Origin: Escherichia coli
GTDB taxonomy: Bacteria; Pseudomonadota; Gammaproteobacteria; Enterobacterales; Enterobacteriaceae
NCBI RefSeq assembly: GCF_003334335.1
Contig: NZ_QOWQ01000016.1
Reading direction: 5' to 3' (one strand)
Length of the DNA: 64,000 bases
Shown here in pieces: positions 41,852-42,236 of this stretch (position 1 is the stretch's first letter; each line of letters begins with the position of its first letter). The notes below the pieces were generated by a model. That model saw nothing but the letters and a program-made list of their open reading frames with translations, had not been told where the DNA came from and did no database searches. Position numbers and translations under genes: made by a program.

Positions 41852-42236
41852 ATTTAATGAAGCATCTATCGCCGGTTGCGATGCTTTGCTGAACGCAGCC
41901 TGAGCCTGCAATTGTTTGTCGTCCATAATTTAACCTTCATTTGATGTTGAATTGAACATATCAAAATCAGGCAATTACACAAATCTATGTACAGGCTCCA
42001 TCAAGGGTAAAGCGTGATTTATCTGAAGTCGAGTTCGAGTCAACAATGAAGCGTAAGCGTTTTATGTAGAACGCCTGTGCGGTGAGTTCAGGTTCCGGGG
42101 AAATAGTGTCCATCCTTTTAATGGACACTATCATGGGCAATGGCTCTGTCACATTAACAACTACAGTTGCTGACCAGCCGGATGGATGATTTTTTTGCAC
42201 CCAGAAGACGTTGCCTCCGATCCGGCTTACAACAAG

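Follow-up and report, generated by a model that had tools for sequence, protein, structure and literature searches.

The 385-bp spacer between cvrA and dadX of Escherichia coli K-12 is very probably a decayed insertion, in which REP-like arms, an end of IS1414, the tail of an LRR gene, the left end of an IS66-family element and a further tail follow one another. The spacer is not a hidden regulator; it is the remnant of a foreign gene island, in which two insertion sequence (IS) ends survive together with the last stretch of an effector-like gene that is otherwise lost. The only visible work within it is that of the hairpin adjoining dadX, which marks the end of the dadX mRNA. The finding is real, yet it is accounted for by ordinary genome decay.

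Composition of the cvrA-dadX gap

The window, a stretch of 64,000 nucleotides of E. coli DNA, carries cvrA on the plus strand (end at 41851) and dadX on the minus strand (stop codon at 42237-42239). Both gene ends place the borders of the gap at 41852 and 42236, in agreement with the initial annotation. A sequence search of the gap against MG1655 revealed 100% identity, and the window is K-12-like. The gap had been described as unexplained, non-coding and free of an ORF of any size. This description does not hold: the minus-strand ORF at 41723-41926 is ymgM, the first 75 nt of which lie within the gap, and the gap as a whole is a mosaic of recognisable relics together with the start of this gene. 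From cvrA to dadX the remains are the left REP-like arm, an IS1414 end of 102 bp, 54 bp from an LRR gene, approximately 83 bp of an IS66 left end with an 11-bp palindrome, a tail of approximately 80 bp, and the right REP-like arm (Table 1). For the segments 41886-41901 and 42136-42215 no source was matched, and the borders of the original insertion are approximate. The filler at 42136-42175 is nearly invariant within E. coli; a plasmid search with 41999-42236 gave no match beyond query position 134.

Consensus scans of 41600-42500 detected no sigma-70 promoter and, on either strand, no terminator consisting of a stem and a T-run. This accords with the earlier statement that neither inverted repeat is followed by a clear U-tract; the only T-run is a T7 (42191-42197) inside the loop of the second pair. 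In a permissive E-value scan, no Rfam family reached its gathering score within the gap, the best hits scoring 11.7-15.7 bits against thresholds of 50-75 (E >= 1.6). These low-scoring matches were to eukaryotic snoRNA and lncRNA families and were discarded as chance level.

Table 1. Features of the cvrA-dadX region in window coordinates.
Feature	Position	Strand	Remarks
Rho-dependent termination region	41650-41700	-	Outside the gap; about 50 nt past the ymgM stop, antisense to the cvrA 3' end
ymgM, small ORF of 67 aa	41723-41926	-	From the ORF list; equals NC_000913.3 1240260-1240463
Weak hairpin AAGCATC-N13-GATGCTT	41860-41886	+	Just past the cvrA stop; holds the surviving left arm; homologous to the empty-site hairpin of L096, L009 and L010
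IS1414 (IS256 family) end relic	41897-41998	-	93% identity (93.1%) over 102 bp to L002 2501-2602, a copy annotated as IS256-like IS1414 family transposase
Last 18 codons of a 478-aa LRR gene	41999-42052	+	IpaH/SlrP-like, without NEL; aligned to L003 138-1574 and L005 2638-4074
IS66-family left end	42053-42135	+	Terminal inverted repeat GTAAGCGTTTTATGTAGAACGCCTGTG..., subterminal region and palindrome; homology stops where tnpA would begin
First palindrome, ATAGTGTCCAT-N7-ATGGACACTAT	42103-42113/42121-42131		11 bp, perfect; from an inverted-repeat search; subterminal hairpin or operator of the IS66 relic
Filler	42136-42175		Tail common to all island-bearing E. coli; no detectable homologue elsewhere
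dadX 3' UTR, branched stem-loop of 71 nt	42166-42236	-	Lower stem UUGUUG/CAGCAA, upper stem AGCCGGAU/AUCCGGCU
Second inverted repeat, AGCCGGAT/ATCCGGCT	42176-42183/42220-42227		8 bp, perfect; 36 nt between the arms

An IS1414 end provides the start of ymgM

The IS1414 relic consists of the outer tip (CAGGCTC, 41992-41998), a 5' leader of about 65 nt, the transposase ATG at 41926 and about nine codons. It carries the terminal sequence of IS1414, and its ATG is in register with the annotated transposase start of the L002 copy. The relic resembles the annotated copy in its terminal tip, leader, ATG and first codons, over 102 bp at 93% identity. In contrast to that copy it is truncated after about nine codons, and its start now heads the chimeric 67-aa ORF ymgM, which runs antisense into cvrA. 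A complete IS1414 transposase gene or a second end is absent from the window, homology ending at 41897. Matches to the IS1414 end were also found on plasmids, and in up to 21 places per genome. The junction of the relic to the flanking DNA lies within a 7-bp sequence, GAGCCTG (41902-41908), which also forms the tip of an older IS256-type fragment in L005 and occurs inside the IS1414 transposase gene.

YmgM is among the small proteins that were detected by chromosomal tagging, with the same sequence and coordinates (PMC6001520, Table 1), and a 2025 survey reported ymgM-cvrA as a pair of convergent, overlapping transcripts. The ATG of ymgM, which aligns with the transposase start in L002, and its first 8-9 codons come from the IS1414 transposase; spacer DNA with the old REP-like arm follows, and the last 43 codons are antisense to the cvrA 3' end. 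By this make-up, ymgM is a chimera that looks like a gene born from an IS relic, and would use the ribosome-binding site and ATG of IS1414.

The LRR gene and the alleles of the spacer

The reading frame of the LRR gene continues from its last codons into the IS66 terminal repeat, where it ends at a TAG (42067-42069). The translation of K-12 41999-42069, ASRVKRDLSEVEFESTMKRKRFM up to the stop, matches the C-terminus of the L005 protein, in frame. The LRR protein has a Pfam LRR_4 match as well as NCBIfam matches to the LRR regions of SlrP (3.4e-22) and SspH2 (2.5e-16) that lie far under the curated cut-offs; a NEL domain was not found in it. Akin to the IpaH/SlrP/SspH effectors of type III secretion systems, it contains 20-residue LPX-type repeats matching the LRR region of SlrP and SspH2. 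Unlike these effectors it is without the NEL E3-ligase domain and takes its C-terminus and stop from an IS66 repeat. Homologues are restricted to E. coli and Shigella, and some database entries name the protein a type III effector or invasion plasmid antigen.

In L005 and L003 the gene is part of an island of about 2.2 kb, which contains an IS256-family end fragment, a 95-aa ORF and the 478-aa LRR gene. L005 2038-4074 and L003 138-1574 replace window 41909-41998. About 1000 E. coli genomes keep the island; their LRR protein has 438-486 aa, is without NEL and shows an acidic, LED-like C-terminus. The spacer is polymorphic, occurring as an empty site, as an intact island, as the K-12 scar and as an EDL933 scar. 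The deletion in EDL933 is different and has other end points, hence the core of the island was lost at least twice. In strain HH97 (L008 2885-3005), a GC-rich filler of 120 bp stands in place of the whole insert, from the left REP-like arm to ATTTTTTCGCAACCAGAAGACG. It was dropped as a third common allele, being present in only one of the 5426 complete genomes.

The ancestral spacer and the history of the insertion

A short cvrA-dadX spacer of approximately 45-100 bp with one GC-rich, REP-like palindrome was found, among loci around DadX, in one divergent E. coli, in E. albertii, and in three Citrobacter and two Enterobacter. Within E. coli the empty site occurs in 1041 of 5426 complete genomes, for example in L096 (TAAGTTTAATGTGTTTCGTAACGCTGGATACGACGCTGGTCGCATCCAGCGATAACAAGTTA) and L097, and its hairpin folds with -20.5 and -25.5 kcal/mol on the two strands. 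In K-12, the left REP-like arm is found at about 41869-41885 (TATCGCCGGTTGCGATGC) and the right arm at about 42218-42227. Since both old arms survive, the DNA between them (about 41886-42216) is inserted. The hairpin that now holds the left arm (41860-41886) has a fold of -13 kcal/mol that is not significant (z = -1.0). The half-consensus of REP is hit at 41871-41884 on the plus strand (two mismatches) and at 42213-42226 on the minus strand (three mismatches), with 48 hits window-wide against 36 by chance. The ancestral hairpin might be termed REP-like, its match to the REP consensus being loose and the hits at chance level. On either side of the insert, GCCGGTTGCGATGCTTTGC (41871-41890) and GCCGGATGGATGATTTTTTTGC (42177-42199) resemble the left REP-like arm, as if it had been copied in direct orientation and the copies had since diverged; the resemblance may stem from duplication of a target or attachment site, or may be fortuitous.

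REP elements are known as stabilisers of mRNA 3' ends and as insertion targets for IS1397 and ISKpn1 (PMC1525189). The spacer is similar to these systems in that foreign DNA landed in a REP-like, GC-rich hairpin between convergent genes, and in that a stable 3' end lies at the dadX hairpin although no U-tract follows; it differs in the only loose fit of the ancestral hairpin to the REP consensus.

The alleles are consistent with the following order of events. The ancestral spacer would have held one REP-like hairpin between the convergent genes cvrA and dadX. The E. coli lineage would have acquired, inside this hairpin, an island of about 2.2 kb, its cargo being an IS256-family fragment, a small ORF, the IpaH/SlrP-like LRR gene and an IS66-family left end. 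In the K-12 branch, a copy of IS1414 would then have entered the 3' end of the LRR gene, and a deletion, probably via the 7-bp GAGCCTG common to both IS256-type sequences, would have removed nearly everything. We infer this order, IS1414 insertion followed by a microhomology deletion, from one junction. A route by inversion or gene conversion would be an alternative to insertion and deletion. That K-12 and strain 32F4 are linked by mere inversion of the 97-bp IS256-type segment, between its 7-bp inverted repeats, is disfavoured: the IS256-type segments of the two strains are only 84% identical and the flanks about 98%, and the K-12 copy is nearer to IS1414 proper (93%).

The IS66 left end

In the plasmid search with 41999-42236, the segment 42037-42132 was 77-83% identical to the left ends of IS66-family elements from Pantoea, Serratia, Edwardsiella, Enterobacter and others (E 1e-11 to 3e-12), and the matches are the left ends of intact tnpA-tnpB-tnpC elements. 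In the alignments, the terminal repeat GTAAGCG... runs from 42053, and the palindrome lies about 51 bp inside, 4-5 nt ahead of the tnpA start. The repeat GTAAGCGTTTTATGTAGAACGCCTGTG at 42053 aligns with the left repeats of L089-L095 and of about 60 metagenome copies, as a terminal inverted repeat of IS66 does. The parent elements are genuine IS66 members. The Serratia element L089 is intact, with a length of 2675 bp and a perfect 8-bp target duplication (GGAATTAC), and its TnpA, TnpB and transposase all score above the NCBIfam IS66 cut-offs.

The IS66 family is characterised by tnpA-tnpB-tnpC, repeats starting with GTAAGCG and an 8-bp duplication. The K-12 sequence shares with it the left terminal repeat, the subterminal region and the palindrome directly 5' of tnpA, but keeps only about 83 bp, without tnpA, tnpB and tnpC, a right end or a recognisable duplication, and transposition is impossible. 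No ORFs for tnpA, tnpB or tnpC follow in the window past about 42135, and the K-12 copy is therefore a relic rather than a member element. Homology to an IS66 right end was not detected in 42133-42260, for which reason an internally deleted, MITE-like IS66 was dropped as a candidate. The flanks of the relic, AATGAAGC and AACAAGTT, differ and show no target-site duplication.

The palindrome itself had initially been read as a perfect 9-bp inverted repeat at 42104-42128. A repeat does exist there; it is in fact 11 bp long with fully complementary arms and a 7-nt loop (42103-42131), the core given before being off by about 1 nt. A search with up to three mismatches allowed found a single occurrence in the window and none in 100 shuffles. 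The RNA folds with -14.3 kcal/mol (z = -3.3) on the plus strand and with -17.4 kcal/mol (z = -6.0) on the minus strand.

The palindrome as a candidate cis element of IS66-family elements

A scan of viral contigs for relatives of TnpA returned eight loci, nearly all identical, and a metagenome scan with TnpA was used instead. It gave 80 loci, and 24 distinct IS66 left ends entered the comparison of the palindrome. The palindrome is found only at the left end of the IS66 element and is conserved in the 24 left ends, down to 42% TnpA identity. Its core, GTCCAT/ATGGAC, is invariant, and the loop varies from 6 to 12 nt. Two stem pairs show compensated changes: at 6/35, 21 sequences have AU and three have CG; at 7/34, 11 have GC, nine AU and one GU, and three are unpaired. 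The covariation score of 0.113, compared with 0.061 in shuffles, was reached by none of 500 shuffles. The stem of the L170 group is longer, at 14 bp, and reaches up to the ATG. One stem pair is an A.C mismatch in the variant that is commonest on E. coli plasmids. Around the palindrome, and partly within it, lie hexamers resembling a promoter, such as TTGACA-15 nt-TATAAT in L118. A literature search for the palindrome sequence and IS66 returned nothing relevant.

We read this pattern of conservation as the mark of a cis-regulatory hairpin in the IS, most likely a fold-back that would block tnpA translation in read-in transcripts. Situated 4-5 nt before the tnpA start codon in the parent IS, the RNA of transcripts started outside would fold back and hide the ribosome-binding region of tnpA. 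A -35-like site lies just 5' of the left arm, and the putative -10 would consist of the loop and the start of the right arm. With the candidate promoter so placed, the element's own transcript would begin within the right arm and escape the hairpin. A point against this scheme is the 15-nt spacer of the candidate IS66 promoter. In IS10 and IS50, fold-back inhibition reportedly prevents translation of the transposase from outside transcription (work of Kleckner and Reznikoff). The candidate IS66 hairpin would be akin to these in that a subterminal inverted repeat pairs over the transposase ribosome-binding region in outside-started transcripts only, the candidate native start lying in the 3' arm. 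In contrast to IS10/IS50, the mechanism is putative in IS66, the hairpin is compact (11-14 bp), its very sequence is conserved, and it might equally well serve as an operator.

The main rival to fold-back is that the palindrome acts as duplex DNA, being an operator at which a TnpA dimer would bind and repress the overlapping tnpA-tnpB-tnpC promoter; in K-12 it would then be an orphan operator with nothing to bind it unless an IS66 copy is present. The hexamers that flank or overlap the palindrome, as in L118 (TTGACA-15 nt-TATAAT), would suit such a site. A helix-turn-helix-like motif is conserved near the N-terminus of TnpA (GRRLGIPKTTVC), the protein weakly matches the IS2 repressor TnpA in NCBIfam, the invariance of the core at 42% TnpA identity fits sequence-specific recognition, and symmetric changes in the half-sites would be expected for a dimer site too. 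However, a half-site spacing that ranges from 6 to 12 nt among lineages would be poorly tolerated by a rigid dimer, and the 14-bp stem of the L170 group, touching the ATG, resembles occlusion of a ribosome-binding site. On these sequence comparisons, an operator is possible and somewhat unlikely, and a fold-back hairpin is the preferred reading.

An IS3-family element enters the palindrome loop

Of 5426 E. coli genomes, 322 contain an IS3-family element of 1416 bp, which begins with TGAACTGCGCCCCAGATC... and finishes with ...TTTGGGGCGCAGTTCA. In some strains it splits the loop of the K-12-type palindrome, and does so in both orientations (L006 3269-4684; L187). Each of the seven copies examined lies within the loop of a GTGTCCA(T)...(A)TGGACAC palindrome and is bordered by target duplications of 3-4 bp. 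The element or its footprint was found at L006, L187, L188, L189, L186, L114, L145 and L168. Five of these palindromes lie upstream of IS66 tnpA or in the IS66 relic, and one lies inside a DMT transporter gene. On the K-12 relic the target site corresponds to window 42113-42119. At L168, a 14-bp footprint of one end of the element was left in the loop.

Entry into a palindrome loop is reminiscent of IS1397 and ISKpn1, which insert into REP loops (PMC1525189), except that the target of the IS3-family element is GTGTCCA...TGGACAC and not REP. A literature search found no description of an IS3-family insertion into this palindrome loop. Taken together, the proposition that the palindrome is a functional hairpin of a large IS66 subgroup and a specific landing site of the IS3-family element, with the K-12 spacer as a live target and ymgM as a coding gene from an IS start, appears to us evenly balanced.

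The dadX 3' end and Rho-dependent termination

The second inverted repeat, given before as GCCGGAT/ATCCGGC, was confirmed with perfect arms of 8 bp. Comparison with the empty sites of L096, L097, L009 and L010 shows that its right arm is the surviving right ancestral REP-like arm and that its left arm belongs to the inserted DNA. The two would pair to give the structure of the dadX 3' UTR, and the 71 nt past the stop codon fold with -25.4 kcal/mol (z = -3.51). Curated Term-seq 3' ends have been mapped at MG1655 1240020 and 1240019 (+) (Adams et al. 2021, PMC7815308, supplementary file 1). They correspond to 42166/42167 on the minus strand of the window, one nt past the closing pair of the stem; there are no other curated Term-seq 3' ends within the gap.

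Downstream of this hairpin, a Rho region was reported at 1240513 (+) with a Rho score of 43.1 (p = 3.4e-70), the reads upstream and downstream being 392/9 in untreated cells and 303/300 with bicyclomycin (Adams et al. 2021, supplementary file 2; PMC7815308). It maps to window 41673, approximately 490 nt downstream of the hairpin end. Since this region lies antisense in the cvrA 3' end, transcription from the dadX side normally runs into the 3' end of cvrA before Rho halts it.

Among the properties of an intrinsic terminator, a mapped 3' end is present and a U-tract is missing, the stem being followed by UGUAGUUGUU; trimming by exonucleases would likewise account for a 3' end at the base of the stem. 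Because the 3' end lies at the stem base, the U-tract is missing and a strong Rho region follows downstream, we suggest that the second pair is a hairpin for protection or processing, and not an intrinsic terminator of the classical type. The initial proposal of an atypical dadAX terminator was thus right in substance, in that RNA 3' ends (42166/42167) do fall at the base of this stem; as to mechanism, the lack of a U-tract makes a protective or processing hairpin more likely. Transcription that passes the dadX hairpin would cross the relics and either translate ymgM or be joined by transcripts that do; Rho would stop it about 50 nt past the ymgM stop, and exonucleases would trim the RNA back to the hairpin, giving the 3' end observed at 42166/42167.

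It could be argued that dadAX has a genuine intrinsic terminator of unusual form in the second repeat, where polymerase halts at the U-rich UGUAGUUGUU past the stem independently of Rho. The structure is strong (z = -3.5), its 3' end was mapped in two growth conditions, the sequence downstream is moderately U-rich, and a single right-arm change in EDL933 keeps a U.G pair in the dadX-sense RNA only. However, the consensus scan found no U-tract, the 3' end is located at the stem base and not 7-9 nt into a U-tract, and a very strong Rho region (score 43) lies downstream on the same strand. Moreover, ymgM is expressed downstream, which together with the Rho region implies read-through past the dadX hairpin. 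We consider intrinsic termination doubtful for these reasons and prefer a protective or processing hairpin.

The first palindrome in K-12

The first palindrome is kept in 4299 of 5426 E. coli genomes. An A-to-G change is present in EDL933 and GDSC2227PM; otherwise, the relic is almost invariant in E. coli, and with so little variation neither constraint nor neutrality is demonstrable. Protein binding, a small-RNA structure and a dadAX terminator had been offered as explanations. None of these host functions is supported for the first palindrome, which is instead the conserved subterminal palindrome of IS66. As to conservation, it is missing in the outgroups and in 19% of E. coli genomes, and no RNA 3' end was placed at it by published Term-seq. 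Most likely the palindrome is inert in K-12, because tnpA is gone and nothing is left to regulate.

A role as a regulatory site or terminator for the neighbours, either the LRR gene (plus strand) or dadX and ymgM (minus strand), is very unlikely. The palindrome lies 34 nt past the stop codon of the LRR ORF, has a stable fold on both strands and is present in 4299 of 5426 genomes, as would suit such a role; yet it originates from an IS66 left end, within whose terminal repeat the LRR stop itself lies, it has neither a U-tract nor a mapped 3' end, it is split by the IS3-family element in some strains, and it carries the A-to-G change in EDL933 and GDSC2227PM. A plus-strand fold of 42060-42215 was also considered as a terminator of the LRR gene and rejected, since it is not significant (z = -0.67).

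Enterobacteria commonly produce small RNAs from 3' UTRs, and the dadX hairpin is a stable 3'-end structure whose mapped 3' end was classed as 'orphan'. An unannotated small RNA in the gap, or one derived from the dadX 3' UTR and using a hairpin, is nonetheless most improbable, given that covariance models for known RNA families gave no Rfam match near threshold (best E 1.6, all far below the gathering scores), that the consensus scan showed no promoter-like site, that most of the region is missing in related species and in 19% of E. coli genomes, and that a literature search found nothing.

Discussion

With an origin for almost every base, a supposedly unexplained intergenic region of K-12 leaves the list of candidate regulators. 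In this one spacer, an effector-like gene has come and gone repeatedly at a REP-like hairpin. For the dadAX mRNA, the 3' end is assigned to a hairpin rebuilt from half of an old REP-like palindrome, and the odd small protein YmgM is accounted for as a chimera started by the transposase initiation region of IS1414. Beyond K-12, IS66-family elements emerge as carriers of a conserved candidate cis element that another IS would target; either point could be tested cheaply. If true, this would be a case of an insertion sequence preying on another insertion sequence, a 1.4-kb IS3-family element on IS66.
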